In this document: positions 2,413-62,062 of the stretch, one piece after another
Layout: the number at the start of each line of letters is the position of its first letter
How positions within the stretch are numbered: the first letter of the stretch is position 1
Origin: Candidatus Woesebacteria bacterium GW2011_GWB1_33_22
Lineage (GTDB): Bacteria; Patescibacteriota; Microgenomatia; UBA8517
Direction of reading: 5' to 3'
DNA length: 64,000 nt
Assembly: GCA_000989765.1 (NCBI GenBank)
Contig: LBOW01000002.1
Coordinates: 70,843 to 134,842 of the forward strand
Notes under the pieces: model-generated
The model's database searches: none
Seen by the model: only the letters and a program-made list of their open reading frames with translations
What the model was told of the DNA's origin: nothing
Translations under genes and position numbers: made by a program

Positions 2413-3391
2413 CCTTTTTGATATATTCTTTAATGCTTTGTCCTTCTCTTGTTTGTAATATATAGGCTCCGCCAGAACTTTTAGCTGAAACTAATACATT
2501 TTCTTCACTTAGGTTAATATAGGAAACAGAATATTCAAGTGGATTGCCAATTTCTTGCAAAATATCATTAACCATTTCTACTGTTAGATTAGTATTTACA
2601 AAAGAAAATGCAGAAGCAAAACTTTTGACATTTGCTTTTTGAAGTATTGCTTTTAATATTTCAAACTGCCGTCTGGAACGATCAAAGTCACTACTCCCAT
2701 GCCTACTTCTGGCGTATTTTAAAGCTTCCTCACCATTCATCTGGTGAGGTCCAACTCCATAACTAATTGATTCATATCTACATGTAAATTGTTTTTCAAG
2801 TTCAAAACCTGAATATTTTTGATGAAATTCTTCTACCTTTTCAGGCGAAAAACCACATAGTTCGTTTTCAAGCCCCTTAACAGGATAAAAATTGTCAGTA
2901 TATGCTTTTTTAACATCTACTGTTATCCCACCTATAGAATTAATCATCTTCATAAACGAAATAAAATCAATAGATATAAAGTTAGATATTGAAAGACCAG
3001 TAACATCAACCACTGCATCTTTAAGTGATGGATCAGCGTTTATCTTATGTCCCGAAAACCAAAGATCTCTGGGAATTGAAATTAGATTTACCTTTTTATC
3101 AGTCACATTAACCGACACAATTATAATAGCATCCATTAAACCTCCACCTGAATGTCCTGCACCCCCATGACCAGTCAGTAAAACATTTAAAAATTTAGCA
3201 TTTTTTGTAGTAACCCTATCTTCCACTATTATTTCAGGTAGGGGATAAGAGTTTGTTTGGATGCTGGCAATTGATGATTGATTATTAGTTACAAACTTTG
3301 TATAGCCATAAGTCCCAAGATACATACCAATTAAAAAAACAGGTAAAACTAAAAGAAATACAAAATTAGGACTTTCTAATAATTTTTTCAT
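2405..3391 (-). CDS. LytR-CpsA-Psr (LCP) family cell-envelope phosphotransferase
   Basis: N-terminal TM plus LCP-domain motifs (SIPRDLW, GGxxxxxxTVxxxxGI, ALxYARSRH). Confidence 0.75.
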
Positions 3392-5598
3392 TTACCCCTC
3401 CCGTGGAACTGTTCATGGATTTCATGAAGTTGTTTATTGGTAACATGTGTATAAATCTGAGTAGTTGAAATGTTTTTATGTCCCAACATTTCTTGAACGC
3501 TTCTTATATCGGCTCCTGCATTAAGTAAATCTGTCGCGTATGAGTTATGACTTACAATTCCATCAGTAAATAAATTTTCAGTATCTAAGACAGTAAAATC
3601 AAAAACATTATATCTAAATGAAGGTAGTTTTTTGATTTTTTTAACCTTTAACCATTTATAATTTTTGGATCTATATAATTGCTTTAATAAGTTGAGTTTT
3701 TGATCTTTATAACCAAAATTTTCAATCTGTCTAATAAATTTAATTAGGGTAGATCTTAACGGAACAATCTTATCTAAATATCGATTTGATTTTATATTTT
3801 CATTCTTTTGCATAGCATATCTAAATCCTATTTTTCCATTCTCTTCTAAATCAATAAATATAGACTTCAGGACCGATTGAGCTGGTATTTTTTCTTCTTC
3901 CCAAATTGAATTATCTAATAATGTTTTACCTTTTAAGGTTGGGATTAATTTAATAAACAATTTCTGATCATTTTTACTAATAATTTGGAGGGTGTAAAAC
4001 AAGTGCCTGAATAATTTACCTTGAGGTAATTTGACCGTTCTGTCTCTCTCCATCAAATGAGCATCTATACCAAGCCTCAAAAGTAACATTTGGATATCTT
4101 TCAAAAAATCCTTAGACGAGGAAAAGATTCTTGGCGCTCCATTAGAATTTCCTTCAGCATCGTAAATTCCAGCTATAAATTCTTTTATTTCATCAATAGT
4201 TGAATTCATTATCAAATAGGGCACACGTCTATCTTTTGAATGTTCATGCAAATTTAAATCCTTCTGCAAAAAATTTACAAATTGATCTGAATAAAAATTC
4301 AATCTAAACGAATTTGTTTTTGGATTGGGTTCAATTCTAGCTTCAGCATTTAATAAATCTCTGATAATTTTTTGATATAACTCAAGAATTGTTTTATTCT
4401 TATCGTGGATAATTACCCCTCTTCGAACTTTACTAATTACACCATCTCCTAAAATATATCCGACTAATCTGGATATCTTTGGATCTATGAATTTTAAACC
4501 TTTTATTTTAACTCTCCGAATTCCTAACACATAATCGTTTACTTTTAAATTTTTGACAAATATTTCGTTAATTCCATTACTTCTTAAGGTAAACAGCCTA
4601 TGGTTATTAGAACAAACTAATTCGTATCCATCAGCCCAAACTGAGTAAAGATCCGATAAATGAGATTCCTTACCAGAAATTTTAGTTTTAGTTATCTTAT
4701 CATTCACCAGATTTAATCCCAAAATGTCTGATTGGTTTTGATAATATAAATTTCGAGCTGAAATAATTTGATCTTTTAAAAATATCCTTGTTTCAGGATG
4801 AACACAGTGGCGGATCCCGTGAGGCGTAATTTCAACAGGTAATTTAATTTTGTGTACATATTTTTTAACCAATCGTTCCACTGATCGGGGAGTGAGGCGC
4901 ATTTTTTCGCCTGCCTGCGCAGGCAGGTCAGGAGTATCAATAAACTTTCCTTTATGTCGTATAAACAAAGGTTTAAAATGATCTTTTCTTTCATTTAAAT
5001 ATTTTTTTAAGTAATCAGCAGAACGAGAAGAAAGAAAAACAACTCTTGCTCTTCCTCCCTTACCAGTAATTCCAAATTCACGTCTTTCAAAATCTATTTT
5101 TTCAATATTAAGGTTTGTTAGTTCAGATACACGTAAACCTGTTGAAAATAAAACTTCCAAAATTGCTTTGTCTCTAATCCCTTGAATGTCTGACATTGTT
5201 GGAGCATTAAGAAGTCTATCTACTTGTTCACCATTTAAAAATTTAACTTGTCTGTCTGGAATTTTAGGTAGTTCAATTTTATCAGGTGCCATAACTTGAT
5301 AGTCATTCCTTATTAGCCATTTTAAAAAGGATCGGAGAGCAATAGCGTGATATCCTTGAGTCTTCTTTCCCAAACCAAGTTTAGCGAGGTATGCCCTAAA
5401 GTCATGAATCGCGTCCTGTTTTATGTCTTCTAATTTAGCATTTGCCTTTTTAGCATTTAACCAGATTGATAATCTGGTTAGGTAATGTTTGTAATTTCTA
5501 ATTGTAAGAGGGGAGCAACCTTTTTCGACAGATAAATAATCCAAAAACTCATCTATTTTTTTTGCTATCTCTGTTATTTTTCCTTGGGCATCTAACAT
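3388..5598 (-). CDS. XerC/XerD-like tyrosine recombinase interrupted by a ~421 aa intein
   Basis: N-terminal SAM-like domain; catalytic Arg (LRVSEL), HGIRH, and a C-extein [34 protein letters not shown] carrying the catalytic Tyr. A Cys...HN|S intein with two LAGLIDADG motifs sits between RH and S. Confidence 0.8.
3544..4806 (-). mobile_element. intein with LAGLIDADG homing-endonuclease domain inside the tyrosine recombinase
   Basis: Begins Cys (after HGIRH) and ends His-Asn followed by Ser+1. Motifs [12 protein letters not shown] and [12 protein letters not shown]. Confidence 0.75.
4910..4927. repeat. palindromic mini-element CCTGCCTGCGCAGGCAGG (family B) inside the recombinase gene
   Basis: Perfect 18-nt palindrome; encodes PAQAGE in-frame. 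Confidence 0.8.
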
Positions 5599-5648: not shown

Positions 5649-6227
5649 CTATATTGCAAGGTCAGACCTTGCAATATCATAATCTTGATGTAGTCCAAAT
5701 AGCTTGAACCATAAATCCATATCTGGAAATTCTATAACCCTGTCGTTACCTTTAAATTTACCCATCTCTAAGGCTCTAGGGAAAATCATTAAGTTAGCAT
5801 CGGACTGTTTGAGTACTTCTGTCGCGGATGAGATGGAATCATCAAAATGTATCATTGAACAATGCTGGCATGCTATATGCCCCTTAAAGACATCGCCATT
5901 CATGTATGTACTAGAACGAATAAAGATGTTTTTTGTATCTATCCATGGATAATTACTATTTAGCCACTTTAAAGTAACATCGGCAAGTTCGGGTACTCTA
6001 GTTGTAACTACCAATTGACTAACTCCATGATCAAAAGCCAATTTTGAATAAGTTTGTATCGGTAAGTTTGGTTTGGCTCGCATAAGCACATCCACATCTG
6101 CCCAGACTTCAGCTTCTGTTTTTGAAGCCTCTTCAAAATTTGCTCCTTTTGCTTTTGCCCAATGAGCCAGTGCAAGCCACTGATCGATTCGTCTATCTTG
6201 AAAATCAAAACCATTCGAAAAGATCAC
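5649..6227 (-). CDS. hypothetical protein (192 aa)
   Basis: ORF. The C-terminus (IARSDLAI) is encoded by a palindromic mini-element. Confidence 0.4.
   Translation of the reverse strand: MIFSNGFDFQDRRIDQWLALAHWAKAKGANFEEASKTEAEVWADVDVLMRAKPNLPIQTYSKLAFDHGVSQLVVTTRVPELADVTLKWLNSNYPWIDTKNIFIRSSTYMNGDVFKGHIACQHCSMIHFDDSISSATEVLKQSDANLMIFPRALEMGKFKGNDRVIEFPDMDLWFKLFGLHQDYDIARSDLAI
5653..5675. repeat. palindromic mini-element ATTGCAAGGTCAGACCTTGCAAT (family A)
   Basis: Perfect palindrome forming the 3' end of the 5649..6227 coding sequence. Identical copies at 21324 and 61431. Confidence 0.8.
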
Positions 6228-16386: not shown

Positions 16387-18984
16387 TTATTTTGTGTGTT
16401 TTGTGTCACGAGGATAAAACTTAATTCTATCTCCCTTGAAGAATAATGGAACTGAAGCAAGGGGTCCGTTTCTGTGTTTAGCTATATCTAAAACTATATT
16501 TTCATTATTGTCTTCATCTTCACGCCACAAAAACATAACCACATCTGAGTCCTGTTCAATGCTGTTATGAACGATAATATCGTTAGCTACAAAATTAGCA
16601 TTTTTAGGTACTGTTGCATCATAAACCTTTTTAATTCCTTGAAATTCAATTGAACGAACTTCATCCCAATAAATATCTGATTGAGCAAATTTTCTTAATT
16701 CTTGATTTTTTAACTCTTTATAAATAGATAAAAGTCTATTTCTACCAATCCCATTTTCATATCTTTGAGTTCCACTATATGCCCAGTTCATTCTTTTGTG
16801 AAATTCTCTTGTGGTAATATTGTTTTGCTTTAGCAAAATTTTAATATAATCCCATATTTCTTTTGGTATTACATCATTATTTGGATTTTCTGTAATATTT
16901 TCCAAAAAGTTTATTGCTTTTTTGACTTGCTCTTTTTTATTACCAACACAACCTATATCATGCAAGAATTTTAATTGTTCGATTTTCCCTTGAACATAAA
17001 CATTCCATATATCTTCATAGCCCACTTTTGATGTTTTCCCTATTTTAGATATTATTCCTAAACGCAATAACAAATGTTGAACTTGTTTTATCAAATCTTT
17101 ATTCCCTGAGGCATAATAAACTGATACTTTTGACTTTTTACCAATTTGCGTGTGGATACAACCATCAGTAGCCCATAAGTGTTTTAAAAATAACTTAATT
17201 TTTTTGCTATTCAGCTCAAAAATTTGATCAGGAATAATCTTTTCTCTTGAATGTTGACCATATACTCCTAATTCCTCATCCAACCATTTTACAAGTGGAT
17301 TTCTTTTTCCTCTAGCCAATCTTTCAGAAGCAGATAAATAAAGATGATACCAATTTTCTTGTTTTACAATTCTTGGAGTGATTGAGAACTCTTTAACAGC
17401 TGCTTTTTTAACAATTGAAATTAGTTTCATATCTGAATTTGTATAATGAATCGGTTGTCTTTTTACATAACAGCCATCGCCAATCATGTGTGCCAAAACA
17501 ATCAATTTATCGTTGGATATGTTTGCTTTGCCAATAACAGATAAAATTCTCGGTATCGCTAATCTATCACCGATTTTTAATTCGTCAAGCCGTATCCAAT
17601 TATTCAATTTTAAAAATTTATGATTAGCAGAAGCTGTTATTTCTCTACCACTCTTAAGAACTAATTTGTAAACCTTCTTTATCCCGCTAAAAAAGACTTT
17701 TGTTATTATTGATTCTTCCAGTTTTAAATTTGAATTCAATGTACTAACTTGAAGGTTATTTTTACCAATTAATGAATCGATTCGTACGCGTTTACCAGAT
17801 GGATATAAAGTTATTAAACTATTTCCTAAAAGGCATCCAGATTCACGAAGGTCCGAAAGTTGGGGCTTTCTGGTTCCTCTCTGTTCCACTCCACGAGATA
17901 ATTGTGATAGAGCAAGAACTGGAACTTTAAGCTCTCTTGCTAAGTTTTTAAGTCCTTGAGAAATTTCACTAACCTCTTGAACTCTGTTTTCTAAATTCCT
18001 GCTTCTAGCAAGTTGCAGATAATCTACAATTATTAAATCAAGTCCATGTTCTACTTGAAGACGTCTTGCTTTTGTTCTCATTTCTAAGATAGAAAGTGCT
18101 GGAGTATCATCAATGTAAAGGGATGCTTCAGCTAAGATCCCCATAGCATTTGAAAGTTTAGTAAAGTCATCCTCTGTTAATTTTCCGGTCTTTAACCTCC
18201 AAGCATCAATATCTGCTTGAGCAACGAGAAGCCTATCTACCAATTCTTCCTTGCTCATTTCCAGAGAGAAAAAGCCTACATTTTTTTTGTCAACTACGGC
18301 AGCGTTTTGTGCAATACCCAAAGCAAAAGATGTTTTACCAATAGAAGGTCTAGCTGCTAAAATAATTAAATTACTTTTTTGTAAACCAGCCAGAGCATTA
18401 TCTAAAGTTTCAAATCCTGTTGAGATACCTCTTAAACCCTCCCCTTGTTTATGAAGCTCGTCAAGCCGATCAAAACTTTCAGCCAAGGTATCACGAACGG
18501 AAGTAAAAGCTTTAGTTAAATGTTTTTGAGTTAATGAGAAAACTTCAGATTCGGCTTTATCTAAAAGTTCTGCTGAAGAAACTCCCTCATCAGTTGAAAA
18601 ATCCAATAAGCGTGAGGCTGCCTTCATTAAAGCTCTTTTAACGGCTAAGTCTTTAACTATTTTTCCATAATGTTCGACGTGAGCTGCAGTTGGAACTTTG
18701 TTAGCAACATCAGTTAAGTATGATGCTCCACCAATTTTTTTTAAATTTTTGTTTTTCTTTAGTTTTTCAGTAACTGTTAAAACGTCAACGGGAGATCTTT
18801 CTTCAAAAAGAGATAACATTGCTTCATATATTTCTTTATGACGTTCATCATAGAAGTCTTCAGAAAGTAAGAAGTCGGCAACAGCAATAACCGCATCTTT
18901 ATCAAGAAGGAGTGCACCAAGGACACTTTGTTCAGCCTCAACACTGTGGGGTGGTACTCTAATTTGATTATTATCTTGAGCCAT
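16387..18984 (-). CDS. dnaB: replicative DNA helicase DnaB interrupted by a ~424 aa intein
   Basis: Walker A ARPSIGKTSF; the RecA-like core is split at RESG|C...HN|SIEQDSDVVMF. Confidence 0.9.
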   Translation of the reverse strand: MAQDNNQIRVPPHSVEAEQSVLGALLLDKDAVIAVADFLLSEDFYDERHKEIYEAMLSLFEERSPVDVLTVTEKLKKNKNLKKIGGASYLTDVANKVPTAAHVEHYGKIVKDLAVKRALMKAASRLLDFSTDEGVSSAELLDKAESEVFSLTQKHLTKAFTSVRDTLAESFDRLDELHKQGEGLRGISTGFETLDNALAGLQKSNLIILAARPSIGKTSFALGIAQNAAVVDKKNVGFFSLEMSKEELVDRLLVAQADIDAWRLKTGKLTEDDFTKLSNAMGILAEASLYIDDTPALSILEMRTKARRLQVEHGLDLIIVDYLQLARSRNLENRVQEVSEISQGLKNLARELKVPVLALSQLSRGVEQRGTRKPQLSDLRESGCLLGNSLITLYPSGKRVRIDSLIGKNNLQVSTLNSNLKLEESIITKVFFSGIKKVYKLVLKSGREITASANHKFLKLNNWIRLDELKIGDRLAIPRILSVIGKANISNDKLIVLAHMIGDGCYVKRQPIHYTNSDMKLISIVKKAAVKEFSITPRIVKQENWYHLYLSASERLARGKRNPLVKWLDEELGVYGQHSREKIIPDQIFELNSKKIKLFLKHLWATDGCIHTQIGKKSKVSVYYASGNKDLIKQVQHLLLRLGIISKIGKTSKVGYEDIWNVYVQGKIEQLKFLHDIGCVGNKKEQVKKAINFLENITENPNNDVIPKEIWDYIKILLKQNNITTREFHKRMNWAYSGTQRYENGIGRNRLLSIYKELKNQELRKFAQSDIYWDEVRSIEFQGIKKVYDATVPKNANFVANDIIVHNSIEQDSDVVMFLWREDEDNNENIVLDIAKHRNGPLASVPLFFKGDRIKFYPRDTKHTK
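16564..17835 (-). mobile_element. DnaB intein with LAGLIDADG homing-endonuclease domain
   Basis: Starts Cys after DLRESG, ends VHN before SIEQD. Motifs LAHMIGDGCY and LKHLWATDGCIH. Confidence 0.8.
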
Positions 18985-26187: not shown

Positions 26188-27450
26188 CTAGATACTAGTT
26201 ACTAGTTTTATAGCTTCCTCAAGTTGTTCGTCAACAGTGGTCTCTGAATTATCCTCAACTTTAATATCTGGAGTTATCCCTTTTTCATTTACCCACACGC
26301 CCTTCGGCGTGAGCCATTTTGCAGTTGTAATATGAAGTGAACTTCCTTTTTCAAGTTGTAGTGGTTCTTGAATTGTTCCTTTACCAAAAGTAGTCTCCCC
26401 TATTAATTTATAACCCTTAACTTCACTTAATGCACCAGCAAGTATTTCGGAGGCAGAAGCACTACCTGCATTAATTAAGATTACAACTTTTTTATTTGTA
26501 AAGTTTCCAATCCTATCTGTTTTAAAATCATTTTTGACCAAACCCCTGTCTTCAATAACAACAACTGAGCCTTTTGTTAAAAACTCTCCAGCAATATCAA
26601 CCGAGCCCTGTAAATATCCTCCAGGATTATTTCTAAGATCCAAAATTATCCCTTCACATTTAGCATTTAGCATTTGGCATTTAGCATTGATGGTAGCAAC
26701 TGCTTTGTTCCATTCAGTATCAGTATCTGCACCAAATTTCAAAAGTTTAATGTGCGCAATTGTGTCATTTTCTCCTGCCTGCGCAGGTGAGTCTATAAAT
26801 TTTACAATGACCGAAGGCACGTCAAGTTTGGCTCTTTCTACAGTAACAGTAATTGGTTCATTTGACCCATCTCTTAAAAGAAGTAATGTTACCTTAGTAT
26901 TTGCCTTCCCTCTAATAATTTTAACGGCATCGCTAAGTGTAATTCCTGAGGTTCCTGTATCAATCTTTTTAACTTCATCTTTAATGCCAACAATAAAATC
27001 CCCAGCTTTAATTCCAGCCTTTTCTGCTGGTGAACCAGGCAGTGGAGCAATAACTGCTAAATTCTTACCCTTAAACCCTATTTGAATTCCAACACCTTCA
27101 AATGAACCAGAGAGATCTTCTTCAATAACTTTATTTTCTTCAGGGGGAAGAAAAGCTGTGTATGGATCGCCCAAGGAAGCCACCATACCAGAAATTGCAC
27201 CATAGACCATTTTTGATATGTTTACTTTAGACTTGTCATAGTATGAAGAATCTAGTGTATCCCAAACTCTCCAAAAAAGAGAAAAATCTACATCACTTCT
27301 ATTTTTGGGAATTTCTCTTGAAATTTTAACTTTTGGAAAACTAGCGCTTTCTAATCTAAATCCATTAAAACCTAAAAAATAACCTGAAGAAAAAATTACT
27401 CCAATTAAAATAACAACAAGAATTGTTTTACGAACGGCAGGAAAATTCAT
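26188..27450 (-). CDS. ctpA: S41-family C-terminal processing peptidase with PDZ domain
   Basis: PDZ domain plus S41 motifs (LDLRNNPGG, TASASE). Confidence 0.85.
   Translation of the reverse strand: MNFPAVRKTILVVILIGVIFSSGYFLGFNGFRLESASFPKVKISREIPKNRSDVDFSLFWRVWDTLDSSYYDKSKVNISKMVYGAISGMVASLGDPYTAFLPPEENKVIEEDLSGSFEGVGIQIGFKGKNLAVIAPLPGSPAEKAGIKAGDFIVGIKDEVKKIDTGTSGITLSDAVKIIRGKANTKVTLLLLRDGSNEPITVTVERAKLDVPSVIVKFIDSPAQAGENDTIAHIKLLKFGADTDTEWNKAVATINAKCQMLNAKCEGIILDLRNNPGGYLQGSVDIAGEFLTKGSVVVIEDRGLVKNDFKTDRIGNFTNKKVVILINAGSASASEILAGALSEVKGYKLIGETTFGKGTIQEPLQLEKGSSLHITTAKWLTPKGVWVNEKGITPDIKVEDNSETTVDEQLEEAIKLVTSI
26774..26787. repeat. family B mini-element variant (CCTGCCTGCGCAGG) inside the S41 peptidase gene
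   Basis: Encodes SPAQAGE in-frame. Confidence 0.75.
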
Positions 27451-28444: not shown

Positions 28445-29383
28445 CTAAGAACCAATCTTAAATTCAATAACGTCTCCATCACAAACTATATAGTTTCTTC
28501 CTTCACTTCTTACTTTACCCAATTCTCTATTTTGTTTCCAGCCTCCATTACTAACAAAGTCATTAAAATCACAAACATCAGCTTTAATAAATTTATTACC
28601 AAAGTCAGTATGAATTACTTGGCTTGCCCTGACGGCTGGCCAGCCAGACGGAAGGGTCCAAGCCCTAACTTCTTTTTCTCCTGCTGTTAGAAAGGTTATT
28701 AAACCCAATGTCTTAAATGCTCTTTGAATTAGTTTATCCAAAGCAGAAGAATCGGTTCCCAATTCTTTCAAATATTCTTTTTGTTCTTCTACGGGTAATT
28801 CAACAAGTTCAGCTTCAATTTTTGCACAAACAGCAACAACTTGATCTTTTTCTAATCCAAGCTCTTCTGCATATTTAGATTCTAGATTCTGACTACTAGC
28901 CACCTCTCCCTCGTCAATGTTTAAAACAACCAAGAAAGGCTTATTTTTAAAAGATGGGGCATCTGGATGCTCTAAATCTGCAAGATCTAATTCTAATTTA
29001 AGTATTTCTAGGTCAGACTTGGGGTCTTTTACTCCTTGCTTGATTATGTCTGGATCTGAAAAGGCACGTAAAACAAAACAAATAGCCGTCACCTCTCTAA
29101 TATGATTTAAGAATTTATTCCCCAAACCCTCGCCTTTACTGGCTCCTTCAATTAAACCTGCAATATCAACAAACTCACAAGTTGCAGGAACAATGGGAGC
29201 ATTATTATAAATTGGACTTAATTTATTTAATCTTTCATCTGGAACTGGAACCACTCCTATATTTGGTTCTATCGTAGCAAATGGAAAATTAGCAACATAT
29301 GCTTGTTGCTTTTTTAAAAGAGCATTAAACAGTGTGGACTTGCCCACGTTTGGTAACCCCACTATCCCTACAGATAAACTCAT
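28445..29383 (-). CDS. ychF: ribosome-binding ATPase YchF (Obg-family GTPase)
   Basis: GLPNVGKSTLFNAL G1 motif and a TGS-like C-terminus. Confidence 0.85.
   Translation of the reverse strand: MSLSVGIVGLPNVGKSTLFNALLKKQQAYVANFPFATIEPNIGVVPVPDERLNKLSPIYNNAPIVPATCEFVDIAGLIEGASKGEGLGNKFLNHIREVTAICFVLRAFSDPDIIKQGVKDPKSDLEILKLELDLADLEHPDAPSFKNKPFLVVLNIDEGEVASSQNLESKYAEELGLEKDQVVAVCAKIEAELVELPVEEQKEYLKELGTDSSALDKLIQRAFKTLGLITFLTAGEKEVRAWTLPSGWPAVRASQVIHTDFGNKFIKADVCDFNDFVSNGGWKQNRELGKVRSEGRNYIVCDGDVIEFKIGS
28619..28668. repeat. GC-rich imperfect palindrome inside ychF (CTTGGCTTGCCCTGACGGCTGGCCAGCCAGACGGAAGGGTCCAAGCC)
   Basis: Contains the perfect core GGCTGGCCAGCC and flanking GGCTTG/CAAGCC arms. 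Encodes ...TLPSGWPAVRAS... Confidence 0.65.
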
Positions 29384-38500: not shown

Positions 38501-39712
38501 TTATTTTATTTTTTTAATAACTTCCTCGAAATCTAGAAGTTCTGTTTTGTCTGAAGTGCGTTCTTTGTATTCAATTTCACCTGCCTGCGCAGACAGGTCT
38601 CCAGTTTTATCAGACACAACAAGTCTTACTGGAATACCGATTAAATCAGCATCATTAAACTTTTGCCCCGCAGGAACGTCTCTGTCATCAAACAAAACAT
38701 CAATTCCAGCGTTTTTAAGTTTTTCATAAATATCTTCACCCTTACCACTTAACCCAATCAAATGAACCTGAAAAGGACTAATCTCTTTGTTCCAAATTAT
38801 ACCTTTGTTATCATGACTCACCTCTACCCAAGTACCCATAACCCTGGTTGGTCCAATTCCATAACTTCCAAACCAGATTGGTTTTTTCTTCCCGTCTTCA
38901 TCAGTAAAATAAGCTCTCATTCTCTCTGCATACCAAGTTCCTAATGGAAAAATATTCCCCACCTCAATTGCTTTTGAACTTTTGTAATCTTTTTTATCCC
39001 CTTTCAACACTTCTTCATTAATTGCTTCTGGATCACCATCTCTCCAATAAATTGTATCTTCTCCAGCATCCGAAAGAACTTGAAACTCATGGGTAAACTT
39101 GTCAGTAAATACACCACCAGAAGCTTTGGTCACTTTAAAATTAAATCCTAATCTTCTAAAAATTTTCGAATATGCATCTTTTACTTTTTCGTAGTACTCC
39201 ATCAAGTTTTCTTCAGTTGTATGAGCTGAATATAAATCTTTCATCATAAATTCACGTCCACGTAATATCCCAGATTTTGCGCGTAGTTCATTTCTAAACT
39301 TAGTCGAAAAATGATAGACGGAAACAGGTAAATCTTTATAACTAGTTATGTTTTTACGAAGAAGATCCATCACAATTTCCTCATGTGTAAATGAAAGTGC
39401 ATATTCCTTCTGCCTTGGATCCGAAAGTTTATACATAATATCATTGGCCTTATCCCACCTACCAGTTTCATTCCAAATTTCTTTTGGATGCAAAAGTGGC
39501 ATTAACATTTCCTGTGCCCCTATAGCATTCATTTCTTCCCTAATTATCTGATTAATTTTTGTAACAACTTTCCAGCCCATAGGCAATAGGGTCCAGCTCC
39601 CAGCCATTAATTGATCCATAAAACCCGCCCGGACCAAAAGTTTATGATTTATTGATTCAGCGTCTTTAGGCGCTTCTTTTCTTGTTTTAGGAAATAGTGA
39701 TGATTGCTTCAT
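38501..39712 (-). CDS. proS: prolyl-tRNA synthetase, short archaeal/eukaryote-like class II form
   Basis: Class II motifs and an anticodon-binding domain. Confidence 0.85.
   Translation of the reverse strand: MKQSSLFPKTRKEAPKDAESINHKLLVRAGFMDQLMAGSWTLLPMGWKVVTKINQIIREEMNAIGAQEMLMPLLHPKEIWNETGRWDKANDIMYKLSDPRQKEYALSFTHEEIVMDLLRKNITSYKDLPVSVYHFSTKFRNELRAKSGILRGREFMMKDLYSAHTTEENLMEYYEKVKDAYSKIFRRLGFNFKVTKASGGVFTDKFTHEFQVLSDAGEDTIYWRDGDPEAINEEVLKGDKKDYKSSKAIEVGNIFPLGTWYAERMRAYFTDEDGKKKPIWFGSYGIGPTRVMGTWVEVSHDNKGIIWNKEISPFQVHLIGLSGKGEDIYEKLKNAGIDVLFDDRDVPAGQKFNDADLIGIPVRLVVSDKTGDLSAQAGEIEYKERTSDKTELLDFEEVIKKIK
38580..38597. repeat. family B mini-element variant (CCTGCCTGCGCAGACAGG) inside proS
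   Basis: Encodes SAQAGE in-frame. Confidence 0.75.
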
Positions 39713-56320: not shown

Positions 56321-56674
56321 ATGACACAAGACCAAAAGTTTGATCTCGAAGAAAGAACAGCTAAATTTGGTGAATCAATAATTGAATTTTGTTTAAAAAT
56401 TAAAAAGAACGAAATTACAAGCCCATTAATTACACAGCTTGTTAAATCATCCACTAGTGTTGGTGCAAATTATTGTGAAGCTGACGATGCAGAAAGTGGA
56501 AGAGACTTTAAACATAAAATTGGCATATGTAAAAAGGAAGCTCGAGAATCAAAACACTTTTTGAGAATGTTTGCAAAAACTAATCCAGAATTTACTGATC
56601 AAATTAGGAATTTATGGCAAGAGGCTAAAGAACTTCATTTGATTTTTAATACAATTTATAGGAAAGTTAAATAA
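56321..56674 (+). CDS. four-helix-bundle protein (23S rRNA IVS-encoded protein family, TIGR02436)
   Basis: SVGANYCEADDAES...ICKKEARESKHFLRM. Confidence 0.7.
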   Translation: MTQDQKFDLEERTAKFGESIIEFCLKIKKNEITSPLITQLVKSSTSVGANYCEADDAESGRDFKHKIGICKKEARESKHFLRMFAKTNPEFTDQIRNLWQEAKELHLIFNTIYRKVK

Positions 56675-61990: not shown

Positions 61991-62062
61991 GCCTAGATAG
62001 CTCAGTTGGTAGAGCGTGCCCATGGTAAGGGTAAGGTCGCCAGTTCAATCCTGGCTCAGAAT
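61991..62062 (+). tRNA. tRNA-Thr(GGT)-like gene whose 3' acceptor strand does not pair with the 5' strand
   Basis: Canonical D-arm (GCTCAGTTGGTAGAGC), anticodon arm (loop ATGGTAA) and T-arm (GCCAG-TTCAATC-CTGGC). But 5' GCCTAGA is followed at the 3' side by TCAGAAT. Confidence 0.45.

Follow-up and report, generated by a model that had tools for sequence, protein, structure and literature searches.

A GC-rich palindrome of 18 bp, CCTGCCTGCGCAGGCAGG, was found by direct reading and pattern search at three places in the window, by which we mean the whole 64,000-nucleotide stretch that was analysed, part of a Woesebacteria (CPR) genome with an average GC content of 33% over this stretch. At the three sites we probably see one mobile element, GC-rich, palindromic, ultra-short and non-autonomous, which would be mobilised in trans, insert without regard to reading frame and be kept by selection. 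A site that receives it gains exactly 18 bp, and no duplication of the target by 2 bp or more accompanies the gain. Copies are found within coding sequences, where each of the three frames is used, as well as between genes and in genes for structured RNAs; some lie beside or inside earlier copies.

The insert in three unrelated genes

The window copies and the genes that hold them are given below, with brackets enclosing the element in the minus-strand readings. An earlier note had reported a near-identical GC-rich palindrome in the recombinase, the S41 peptidase and proS, and it was indeed recovered at all three places.

Host gene 1: 3388..5598, minus strand, XerC/D-type tyrosine recombinase interrupted by a LAGLIDADG intein, 736 aa
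Copy 1: 4910..4927, minus strand, 0 mismatches, perfect 18-bp palindrome CCTGCCTGCGCAGGCAGG; GA[C CTG CCT GCG CAG GCA GG]C gives LPAQAG, flanked by ...DTPD and EKMRL... in the tyrosine recombinase
Host gene 2: 26188..27450, minus strand, S41 carboxy-terminal processing peptidase, 420 aa (PF03572, PDZ)
Copy 2: 26774..26791, minus strand, 3 mismatches, 14 nt identical to the canonical element; GA[C TCA CCT GCG CAG GCA GG]A gives SPAQAG, in a hypervariable loop of the S41 (Ctp) peptidase
Host gene 3: 38501..39712, minus strand, prolyl-tRNA synthetase (ProRS), 403 aa (PF00587, PF03129)
Copy 3: 38580..38597, minus strand, 1 mismatch, CCTGCCTGCGCAGACAGG, the "T" sub-variant; GA[C CTG TCT GCG CAG GCA GG]T gives LSAQAG, in a beta-hairpin turn of the ProRS anticodon-binding domain

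The 18-bp core can be written (CCTG)2-C|G-(CAGG)2. All three copies lie in minus-strand ORFs at the same codon offset, xxC CTG CCT GCG CAG GCA GGx, and encode the pattern L/S-P/S-A-Q-A-G, the ProRS copy reading D-LSAQAG-E. The S41 copy had been placed at 26774..26787, which is the exactly shared 14-nt part, whereas the full copy covers 26774-26791. Of the peptide first proposed, P/S-A-Q-A-G-E, the AQAG core stands but the trailing E belongs to the host, and the conserved unit is LPAQAG (18 nt). The leading D is likewise a host residue: insert-free orthologs already have D and K/E, and in L002 the insert is followed by K.

That the motif occurs above random expectation was borne out, as no match with 3 mismatches or fewer appeared in 100 dinucleotide-preserving shuffles. 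Allowing up to 5 mismatches added no further copy of the 18-mer in the window, from which a 20-mer variant (see below) is likewise absent. Public assemblies made independently from the same strain (L206, L207) contain all three copies unchanged (100% identity), the recombinase copy (4910..4927) being identical in L207; since these assemblies come from different samples and studies, the window copies are not assembly artefacts. Another GC-rich palindrome in the window (28626-28651, in YchF) turned out to be neither an insertion nor a member of the 18-mer family.

Alignments of about 120 sequences per host gene revealed clean six-codon gains. Candidatus Woesebacteria bacterium GWC2_33_12 has a protein 100% identical to the window ProRS, and the insert was found in 3 of 120 ProRS orthologs, the remainder reading GD|KIE. 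In nucleotides, 12 relatives have the empty ProRS site GGA GAY|AAA ATT, to which the filled site adds exactly 18 nt; comparing the two showed no duplicated target bases (2 bp or more) beside this gain. For the S41 peptidase, the insert was restricted to the identical entry (1/120): SPAQAG was seen in 0 of the 119 others, and orthologs at 80-84% identity have FI---E or GE where it sits. As for the recombinase (Pfam families Phage_int_SAM_1, Phage_integrase, Intein_splicing and LAGLIDADG_3), the insert is present in 1 of 119 aligned orthologs, the other 118 reading ...PTTPD|EKMRL... without it, and a 36-nt relative of the element stands at the site of the window copy. With these counts for the three genes, we concluded, in line with the earlier note, that the segment is a lineage-restricted indel and not a conserved feature. 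A similar pattern was seen in EF-Ts, where 3 orthologs have the insert and about 60 lack it.

In the AlphaFold model of ProRS, the insert residues 373-378 form a turn between strands 362-366 and 380-384, and pLDDT falls below 50 at residues 374-377. The model thus points to a surface loop, a beta-hairpin turn, as the location of the ProRS copy, in agreement with what had been anticipated. The initial comparison with Rickettsia palindromic elements (RPEs), of which these would be far shorter in-frame counterparts in unrelated genes, also survived, the 18-nt insertions being shown by the orthologs.

A 20-mer relative, CCTGCCTGCCGGCAGGCAGG, has the same termini around a 20-nt core, adds a net 21 nt and encodes LPAGRQG; the 36-nt relative at the recombinase site also shares its termini with the 18-mer. 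The 18, 20/21 and 36 nt forms make up one family, in which the ends are conserved and the centre varies. A filled site gains a DNA hairpin of -5 to -8.5 kcal/mol, which is missing from the empty one. Tandem or nested copies were found (L190, L194, L108), with no REPIN-like spacing. Other sequence families behave similarly, for instance PPAGGE in DnaX and CysRS.

Distribution, reading frame and flanks

Eight more copies, at other sites, were detected in 1.38 Mb of other Microgenomates genomes, so that the check for different positions in related genomes, suggested in the earlier note, came out positive, and the same 18-mer was found on at least 120 metagenome contigs. The density is 3 per 64 kb (1 per 21 kb) in the window, against 8 per 1.38 Mb (~1 per 170 kb) in relatives; extra DNA from the element-rich L009 genome yielded zero additional copies. 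In 1.44 Mb of Microgenomates DNA, the 18-mer is the sole recurrent GC-rich palindrome. Its protein hosts are dozens of unrelated housekeeping proteins, including UvrA, HtrA, RNase J, GatB, ParB, the CCA-adding enzyme and DapF, and among them are the essential single-copy ProRS, EF-Ts, DnaE and IleRS. Copies were also found in intergenic DNA, in RNase P RNA (an 18-nt insertion in a hairpin loop) and in tRNA-like genes. The identical 18-mer spans genomes of 30-50% GC, a sameness that is unusual for a selfish repeat family, as such families normally diverge between hosts. A literature search returned no paper mentioning LPAQAG or describing such elements in CPR.

Matches in viral contigs were mostly GC-rich, and hence uninformative. 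Paired copies spaced by 656/658 bp in these contigs were considered as a composite unit, which was discarded: they come from two GC-rich phages, each sampled twice, in which the palindromes are intergenic hairpins.

All six reading frames of the 18-mer are free of stop codons. Among 60 confident low-GC ORF copies, the three frames are represented 47 : 9 : 4, with 47/60 in the LPAQAG frame. The statement that the frame is always the same is therefore correct in the window, and elsewhere holds only for a strong majority. We consider that the LPAQAG frame is the selected majority and not a rule, since the other two frames, intergenic DNA and RNA genes are also hit. Some 47 LPAQAG-frame copies stand against about 15 that are apparently non-coding. 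Blind insertion followed by selection predicts more intergenic than coding copies, and the opposite was seen, which implies either a hidden target bias or a faster loss of unconstrained copies.

The residues around the insert are consistently Gly/Asp before and Lys/Glu after it. The flank G-R|Y-R-A was present at 13 of the 47 LPAQAG-frame copies, a 12-fold enrichment over the background of 2.3%, and at just 1 of 31 copies in other frames or intergenic DNA. This limitation to LPAQAG-frame copies indicates selection rather than targeting, and a target-site specificity deduced from the G-R|Y-R-A-A flank bias was consequently rejected, the bias being attributed mainly to selection. A pyrimidine directly follows the element at 14 of 18 Gly-preceded sites (p = 0.014), a bias that is neutral for the protein. 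It is modest, and suggests some DNA-level preference, or an element extending over 20 bp.

Mobility and competing explanations

Recurrence at one site was observed in three genes: in ProRS the carriers (window, P0002 and P0004, plus L069) are not monophyletic, in EF-Ts the insert is found in L009 and in L017/L038, and in the recombinase the site is shared with P0352. The T sub-variant is itself common to non-sister ProRS lineages with the insert. Blind insertion alone does not predict such recurrence. At strain level no empty/filled polymorphism was seen, copies being fixed in the strains sampled. Some copies are decayed (L009, L038 and the window S41 copy), and the peptide of older copies drifts, for example to LPAQIS or SPAQAG. 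When the ProRS copies of the window and L002 were compared, 6 of 6 silent sites were identical inside the element, against 56% in the flanks. Altogether, evidence for a DNA-level constraint after insertion is weak and mixed.

These observations bear on a first alternative, in which the palindrome is a DNA recognition site, such as a DNA-uptake sequence or the target of a competence or recombination protein, and alleles spread by natural transformation with little or no transposition. It would account for an identical 18-mer over divergent lineages and GC contents, for the single insertion allele, T sub-variant included, in non-sister ProRS and likewise at the EF-Ts and recombinase sites, and for the 6/6 silent sites within the ProRS copy. 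A dependence of CPR bacteria on DNA uptake is generally assumed, and DprA is encoded in the window. Uptake bias, however, cannot create clean +18 bp gains in unrelated genes. Known uptake sequences occur about once per kb, and the densities reported above are low in comparison; moreover, copies decay once inserted and no recombination tract was detectable around the ProRS copy. We regard this alternative as unlikely. A role as DNA-binding target or recombination hotspot, both raised in the earlier note, or as uptake target may be an added property of the element, and alone cannot explain clean +18 bp gains at unrelated loci.

A second and clearly less probable alternative is that the 18-mer (9 + 9 nt) and the 20/21-nt variants are scars, in which the terminal inverted repeats of a larger, excised transposon were brought together and the variable centre was produced by end-joining. 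The structure itself fits, with two abutted 9-nt inverted termini around a centre of 0 nt, CG or longer, and so do the net lengths in ORFs (18, 21 and 36), all multiples of three, as if selection filtered the scars. Against it, no parent element between half-sites CCTGCCTGC ... GCAGGCAGG was found in 2.9 Mb, all loci being searched: the half-site pairs considered as transposon ends were all separate insertions in ordinary housekeeping genes (CysRS, UvrA/UvrC, GyrA). A full transposon in essential single-copy hosts such as ProRS, EF-Ts, DnaE and IleRS would also be lethal before excision, the scar would have to come without target-site duplication, and perfect 18-mers far outnumber the other forms, where variable end-joining predicts otherwise.

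LPAQAG could, thirdly, be a peptide motif selected at the protein level (a protease site, a docking motif or a flexible linker) that arose by convergence, the DNA similarity being secondary. The strong frame bias (47/60), the consistent Gly/Asp and Lys/Glu neighbours and the decayed copies that keep the peptide through silent changes (L038) speak for this. Yet the copies agree base by base in GC-rich codons that are rare in a genome of 33% GC, an agreement that convergence would not give, and LPAQAG built from AT-rich synonymous codons at independent sites is completely absent. Hosts have no common function or location, copies also occupy both remaining frames, intergenic DNA and RNA genes, and the peptide drifts in older copies, so that we hold a protein-level origin to be very improbable. 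Chance, ordinary conservation and an assembly or adapter artefact have a practically negligible probability and were rejected, given 0 matches in 100 shuffles, orthologs without the segment, and copies that are identical across independent assemblies and in-frame inside intact conserved genes.

We return to the reading as a mobile element, which would be mobilised in trans. Its insertion would be essentially blind to frame and target. Purifying selection would then retain mainly those copies that encode the bland L-P-A-Q-A-G in surface loops running from a Gly/Asp turn to Lys/Glu, or that fall in RNA hairpin loops, after which the palindrome would decay as neutral sequence. Mobilisation, the weakest step of this scheme, may act in trans on a single-stranded hairpin form, the putative enzyme being a structure- or sequence-specific nuclease or transposase of the peel-and-paste kind. 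To our knowledge, peel-and-paste is the only known bacterial mechanism that combines hairpin recognition, the absence of target duplication and precise excision. The presence of a single insertion allele among non-sister lineages would probably result from short-patch homologous recombination after DNA uptake, or from repeated precise loss.

No transposase is encoded in the window, and tblastn with an approximate IS200 TnpA query gave no IS200/RAYT-type HUH-Y1 homologue in 2.9 Mb, that is ~20 kb per genome, a sample which is a tiny fraction of the genomes concerned. Three of 10 GIY-YIG ORFs, the candidate protein being about 85 aa, have a palindrome of the family no more than 152 bp upstream (L106, L131, L269, with 28-150 bp between protein and copy). 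These three palindromes all lie within structured-RNA genes, which tolerate inserts too, and a small GIY-YIG nuclease as the mobiliser is only a lead. A bolder version, which we consider doubtful, is that the 18-mer and its 20/21- and 36-nt relatives are the smallest bacterial mobile element yet, one half of a new RAYT-REP-like partnership between nuclease and hairpin, in which a small stand-alone nuclease (candidate GIY-YIG) would cut the single-stranded hairpin and paste it into genes and RNA genes across CPR, and alleles would "home" to the same site in other lineages via uptake and short-patch recombination. If true, a six-residue signature in essential proteins would trace gene flow among uncultured ultra-small bacteria.

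As a mobile element, the 18-mer of these ultra-small groundwater bacteria would be among the shortest described, and its occurrence in CPR/Patescibacteria concerns a very large branch whose reduced genomes are thought to be poor in repetitive DNA. It poses a mechanistic question, namely which enzyme moves an 18-nt hairpin without target duplication. It would also let insertion, loss and the lateral transfer of alleles be followed by simple counting in organisms that cannot be grown in culture, and would show which loops of dozens of conserved proteins, of RNase P RNA and of tRNA naturally tolerate insertions. For annotation, the warning is that a short "indel" specific to one lineage in a CPR housekeeping protein may be mobile DNA, and not adaptive protein evolution.

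Comparison with known systems

With 18 nt, the insert falls far below the size of any known self-splicing element, intein or intron, and it would be read through in-frame. HIP1 (GCGATCGC) of cyanobacteria is a short over-represented palindromic word, inside genes and common to related genomes, with possible DNA-level functions (PMC5861425). The 18-mer resembles HIP1 and the DUS and USS words in being short, GC-rich or palindromic, over-represented and located within genes. These 8-12-mers, however, arise via substitution and occur in all frames at ~1 per gene or kb, whereas the 18-mer is inserted, at least 20 times rarer, and frame-filtered. MITEs differ as well, being 50-500 bp long, with terminal inverted repeats, a target-site duplication and an origin from an IS that has the same ends; for the 18-bp element, neither a duplication of at least 2 bp nor a parent IS between half-sites was found.

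REPs are short GC-rich hairpin palindromes, dispersed in many copies, non-autonomous, devoid of target duplications, and clustered by insertion next to or into existing copies (PMC3116915). The 18-mer is likewise a short GC-rich hairpin palindrome in many copies with no target duplication. In contrast, REPs are extragenic and the 18-mer is mostly in ORFs (60 confident ORF copies vs ~15 non-coding). REPs are imperfect, usually 20-40 nt long, with a conserved 5' tetranucleotide, and species-specific, while the 18-mer is perfect and cross-lineage; and they replicate as inverted doublets (REPINs), while copies of the 18-mer are nearly all singlets. REPs also flank a RAYT gene; no RAYT-like gene was seen in the small sample of 2.9 Mb.

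Closest in size are the SDRs. Elhai et al. reportedly described in 2008 the SDR1-8 repeats of heterocystous cyanobacteria as hairpins of 21-27 nt, apparently mobile, encoding no protein and self-nested; an RNA intermediate was reportedly proposed. By this description, their size and nesting would be similar to those of the 18-mer. They differ from it in having other sequences and in being confined to one cyanobacterial subgroup, mostly within other repeats or intergenic DNA, and we know of no in-frame SDR insertion in a conserved protein. Yeast mitochondrial GC clusters and Neurospora PstI palindromes are mobile GC-rich palindromes in an AT-rich genome, occasionally in-frame in coding sequence. 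They are organellar, about 30-60 bp long, of several classes and mostly intergenic, and are unrelated to the 18-mer in sequence and host.

Until now, selfish palindromic DNA in essential genes was a curiosity known from Rickettsia and some organelles, its elements measuring 100 bp or more. RPEs were reportedly first described in Science in 2000. Their consensus sequences are long and AT-rich, and an 18-nt GC-rich palindrome cannot be homologous to them. RPEs are palindromic repeats found in-frame in unrelated, often essential protein genes, where translation turns them into additional peptide stretches that the protein tolerates, and also in RNA genes and intergenic DNA (PMC10969869). They are specific to Rickettsia and AT-rich like their host, whereas the 18-mer is GC-rich in AT-rich Woesebacteria/Microgenomates; and they measure about 100-150 bp, or tens of residues, against six codons for the 18-mer and 21 and 36 nt for its relatives. 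The likeness is that of an in-frame palindromic insert tolerated in surface regions, as the alignments, the frames and the ProRS model indicate for the 18-mer, and the evolutionary logic, selfish DNA surviving within ORFs, is the same; with 18 bp and six codons, the 18-mer would be about the physical minimum for a selfish palindrome inside genes.

Three in-frame copies in the window

The 18-bp GC-rich palindrome CCTGCCTGCGCAGGCAGG was found in three unrelated genes, as claimed in the earlier note:

Copy 1: 4910-4927, in the minus-strand ORF of the tyrosine recombinase; exact; D-LPAQAG-E
Copy 2: 26774-26791, in the minus-strand ORF of the S41 peptidase; 3 mismatches, first 14 nt identical; D-SPAQAG-E
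Copy 3: 38580-38597, in the minus-strand ORF of ProRS; 1 mismatch; D-LSAQAG-E

The copies were also said to share one frame, and their codon offset is indeed identical (coding strand xxC CTG CCT GCG CAG GCA GGx). No further copy was found in the window at up to 5 mismatches, and 100 dinucleotide-preserving shuffles of it gave no match at ≤3 mismatches. GC content is 33% (30-36% over 2-kb windows), and among repeated GC-rich 11-mers the element family alone occurs more than twice. As the codons GCG, CAG, CTG and GGC are unusual in a genome this rich in AT, the similarity among copies lies at the DNA level. Independent assemblies of the strain, made from different samples, contain all three copies without any change.

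Most orthologs of the host proteins lack the extra residues. In ProRS, 117 of 120 read ...VVSDKTGD|KIEYKER..., and the six added residues occur only in the window's own protein and in the orthologs P0002 and P0004. At the DNA level, twelve relatives have the empty site GGA GAY|AAA ATT, and filled sites read GGA GA[C CTG TCT GCG CAG GCA GG]T AAA/GAA, exactly 18 nt more, with no target duplication of 2 bp or longer between filled and empty sites. SPAQAG is present in none of the 119 other S41 orthologs, the closest of which (80-84% identity) have FI---E or GE at the corresponding hypervariable loop. Recombinase orthologs read ...PTTPD|EKMRL..., the insert of the window's protein lying between D and E. 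These are therefore lineage-restricted inserts and not conserved residues. Since orthologs without insert already have the flanking D and E/K, these belong to the host; of the peptide P/S-A-Q-A-G-E proposed in the earlier note, the part through G stands, as the end of six inserted residues, and the E does not. The insertion unit is 18 nt, or six codons. Insertion is exact and without target duplication.

In the AlphaFold2 structure predicted for ProRS of the window (alignment of 59 sequences, mean pLDDT 73), LSAQAG (residues 373-378) occupies a beta-hairpin turn between strands 362-366 and 380-384, in line with the surface loops suggested previously. This turn is the sole segment of the C-terminal anticodon-binding domain with a pLDDT below 50. 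The observation is real, and its first interpretation was essentially right.

Other features of the window were recorded. LAGLIDADG-type inteins (Pfam Intein_splicing + LAGLIDADG_3) are present in the Xer-type recombinase (3388-5598) and the DnaB helicase (16387-18984), so that the recombinase hosts two unrelated intervening elements. Public contigs of the strain, otherwise 100% identical to the window, have an extra 86 bp at 6212/6213 (L207 15281-15366, within a 242-aa ORF) and an extra 55 bp at 62057/62058 (L208 18225-18279, covering the sequence directly downstream of a tRNA-like stretch plus the rpmG/L33 start codon); neither of these AT-rich segments is related to the palindrome, and the ORFs at both places are truncated in the window. 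An ORF standing on its own at 56321-56674, flanked by the peptide deformylase gene and fmt, encodes a 23S_rRNA_IVP (four-helix-bundle) domain, typical of rRNA intervening-sequence proteins. Finally, the YchF-like GTPase gene (28445-29383, minus strand) contains at 28626-28651 a GC-rich near-palindromic patch, CCG TCT GGC TGG CCA GCC GTC AGG GC, which replaces a usually conserved stretch at unchanged length (orthologs WTIKNGITASNAAGVIHTDF, window WTLPSGWPAVRASQVIHTDF). It was rejected as a family copy, being neither an insertion nor of the CCTGCCTGC family.

Spread, reading frames and decay

Related genomes carry the element elsewhere, mostly at other sites. Among 80 loci around ProRS from other Microgenomates genomes (1.38 Mb), eight further copies (≤3 mismatches) were found, all with the codon offset of the window copies: one in L002, at the same ProRS site, three in L009, one in L017, two in L038 and one in L046. 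Three of the eight fill one common site of EF-Ts (in L009, L017 and L038), in an N-terminal domain loop between G-D/N and E-K-K; about 60 other EF-Ts orthologs, the window's own included, have no insert.

At least 120 public metagenome contigs, many groundwater-derived, contain CCTGYCTGCGCAGRCAGG. Among the matches listed that fall in confident ORFs, on contigs with less than 50% GC, the frame is LPAQAG in 47 copies, CLRRQ in 9 and PACAGR in 4; all frames of the palindrome are free of stop codons. The hosts are unrelated housekeeping enzymes (UvrA, an HtrA-type protease, RNase J, GatB, deoxyhypusine synthase, together with ParB, the CCA-adding enzyme, a 5'-3' exonuclease, DapF and an RluA-type synthase), to which inspection added IleRS, DnaE, topoisomerase I, UvrC and CysRS. 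About 15 of the matches listed fall between genes or within very short ORFs. Structured RNA genes are also hit: RNase P RNA of locus L131 (Rfam class A, E = 6.6e-26) carries 18 inserted nt that the model lacks, in the terminal loop of one of its helices, and tRNA-like sequences of L106 and L269 have copies within the D arm or directly after it. Targets thus include all frames and non-coding DNA, the bland LPAQAG frame is in strong excess, and inserts are located in loops. Matches in GC-rich contigs, including most of 64 in viral contigs, are intergenic hairpins or near chance, and were not counted as the same phenomenon. In phage-like viral contigs of 57-67% GC (L220/L221, L238/L267, L258), the same 18-mer and its 20-mer relative, described below, form intergenic hairpins flanking genes, sometimes several on one contig (six 20-mers in 29.5 kb).

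Older copies decay: one in L009 reads LPAQIS, L038 shows silent changes, and the S41 copy of the window differs at three positions. The flank pattern G-R|Y-R-A, that is Gly/Asp before and Lys/Glu/Asp after, was found in 13 of the 47 LPAQAG-frame copies, compared to 2.3% of codon junctions in the same host ORFs (12-fold enrichment), and in 1 of 31 other-frame and intergenic copies, both orientations considered, where we call it absent. Being confined to LPAQAG-frame copies, it was attributed mainly to selection for surface turns rather than to enzyme specificity. A protein-neutral signal was seen at the base following Gly-preceded copies: 14 of 18 have a pyrimidine there (49% expected, p = 0.014) and 8 of 18 a C (23% expected). 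This points to an extent of 20 bp (G-18mer-C) or else to a weak preference for GR|Y. Among the matches listed, there are about three coding copies for each intergenic one; this is in tension with blind insertion, which predicts more intergenic than coding copies, unless those under no constraint disappear or decay more quickly.

Relatives, recurrence and mobilisation

The same arms enclose a central CG in a 20-mer, CCTGCCTGC-CG-GCAGGCAGG, which is present in L068, L028, L079 and L108; in the L068 ProRS it reads G-LPAGRQ, with a net gain of 21 nt over orthologs. A 36-nt relative, LPASLREALQAG, lies exactly at the window's recombinase insertion site in P0352 (L201 10001-11008), a distant ortholog (64% identity). 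It reads C CTG CCC GCA TCG CTA CGC GAA GCG TTG CAG GCG GG, the element's termini plus an internal ACGC-GAA-GCGT hairpin. It represents a longer member of the family or else an 18-mer whose centre received a second insertion. Copies are tandem or adjacent in L190, L194 and L108. At the window's SPAQAG loop, S41 orthologs P0130, P0138, P0157, P0164 and P0193 and the L203/L205 genes have different inserts of 6-8 residues (DPPAGEAG, DPSEGEAG and similar; DNA GAC CCG CCA GCA GGC GAG GCA GGC), which by their sequence look like decayed 20/21-mer relatives. One S41 ortholog has LSAQAG at another site. In locus L134 (1300-1345 and 3840-3890) the core lies inside a longer palindrome, GTCATTCCCGCCTGTGCAGGCAGGCGGGAATGAC, and a second copy has ...GGCGGGAATGA after it, which hints at longer composite hairpin elements with a common core.

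A de novo scan of 1.44 Mb gave the element as the sole GC-rich palindrome recurring across genomes. Other sequence families behave alike: TCCGCCGGCCGGCGGA (PPAGGE) is in DnaX and CysRS of L037 (12990 and 19233) and DnaX of L033 and L036, with a near-variant, PLAGGE, in L053, and a different palindrome, GCGCTAAGCGCTTAGCGC, occupies the same DnaX Zn-finger loop at L069 14561. This loop of the zinc module, from the first Cys to PCxxC, is a length-hypervariable hotspot over about 60 Microgenomates genomes. In-frame inserts of short GC-rich palindromes thus appear to be general in these genomes.

The three insert-bearing ProRS alleles are not a clade: P0004 is 91-92% identical to the insert-free P0003 and P0007 and only 83% to the window's allele, yet the three alleles with the insert share the T sub-variant (CTG TCT...). 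A diverged copy occupies the identical site in the distant ProRS of L069, the EF-Ts site is filled in non-sister lineages, and the recombinase site is filled both in the window (18-mer) and in P0352. Blind insertion plus selection does not predict such recurrence. It may result from short-patch homologous transfer following DNA uptake; silent-site identity is weakly higher in the element (6/6) than in its flanks (56%), and a sliding-window comparison gave no clear recombination tract around the ProRS insert, the identity of 0.92 between the window and L002 just upstream falling in a segment conserved in all pairs. Alternatively, it may reflect a real site preference, or an old insertion followed by many precise losses.

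We hold it very probable that the copies are sequence-specific insertions with a mobile origin. A DNA hairpin of -5 to -8.5 kcal/mol can fold where the element is present but not at the empty site. This hairpin form would be mobilised in trans, insertion being blind to frame and followed by selection, a full picture that we consider moderately probable. Among known bacterial mechanisms, only the HUH-Y1 single-strand 'peel-and-paste' recognises hairpins, leaves no target duplication and also excises precisely; its enzymes are those of IS200/IS605, and RAYT for REP/REPIN (PMC3116915). No HUH-Y1-type gene was found in the DNA searched, about 20 kb per genome, and the window encodes nothing beyond housekeeping genes, two inteins, DprA, a PIN protein and the like. 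In 3 of 10 GIY-YIG loci, a family palindrome is followed at a distance of 28-152 bp by the gene of a small GIY-YIG protein (Pfam PF01541), an ORF of about 78-88 aa within a structured-RNA gene:

L131 9154-9802: insert of 246 nt in an RNase P RNA helix
L269 480-1420: ORF after the anticodon-stem region of a tRNA-like 5' half, the half being duplicated downstream
L106 11300-11860: same arrangement as in L269

This proximity exceeds chance, yet all three sit within structured-RNA genes that tolerate any insert, and we take it as a lead. L269 also contains a group I intron (1182-1416).

Comparison with known systems

Cyanobacterial small dispersed repeats, of 21-27 nt, nest within themselves; they are the nearest in size to the present element, which nests likewise. 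Among organelles, the GC clusters of yeast mitochondria are an analogue. The literature searched made no mention of the LPAQAG peptide or of such elements in CPR bacteria, and we regard the palindrome as a new and extremely short variant of intragenic palindromic selfish DNA, previously undescribed in this lineage. HIP1 and uptake sequences are different: they arise by substitution and occur far more densely (PMC5861425). REP sequences have a similar form but are by definition extragenic and organised in doublets (PMC3116915); the element described here is mostly intragenic and nearly always single. The closest analogue in way of working is the Rickettsia palindromic element, inserted in frame in unrelated genes as tolerated surface peptides; the likeness drawn in the earlier note holds for this in-frame logic, between elements that have no relation in sequence or host and of which ours is, as was said, far shorter, 18 bp versus about 150 bp (PMC10969869).
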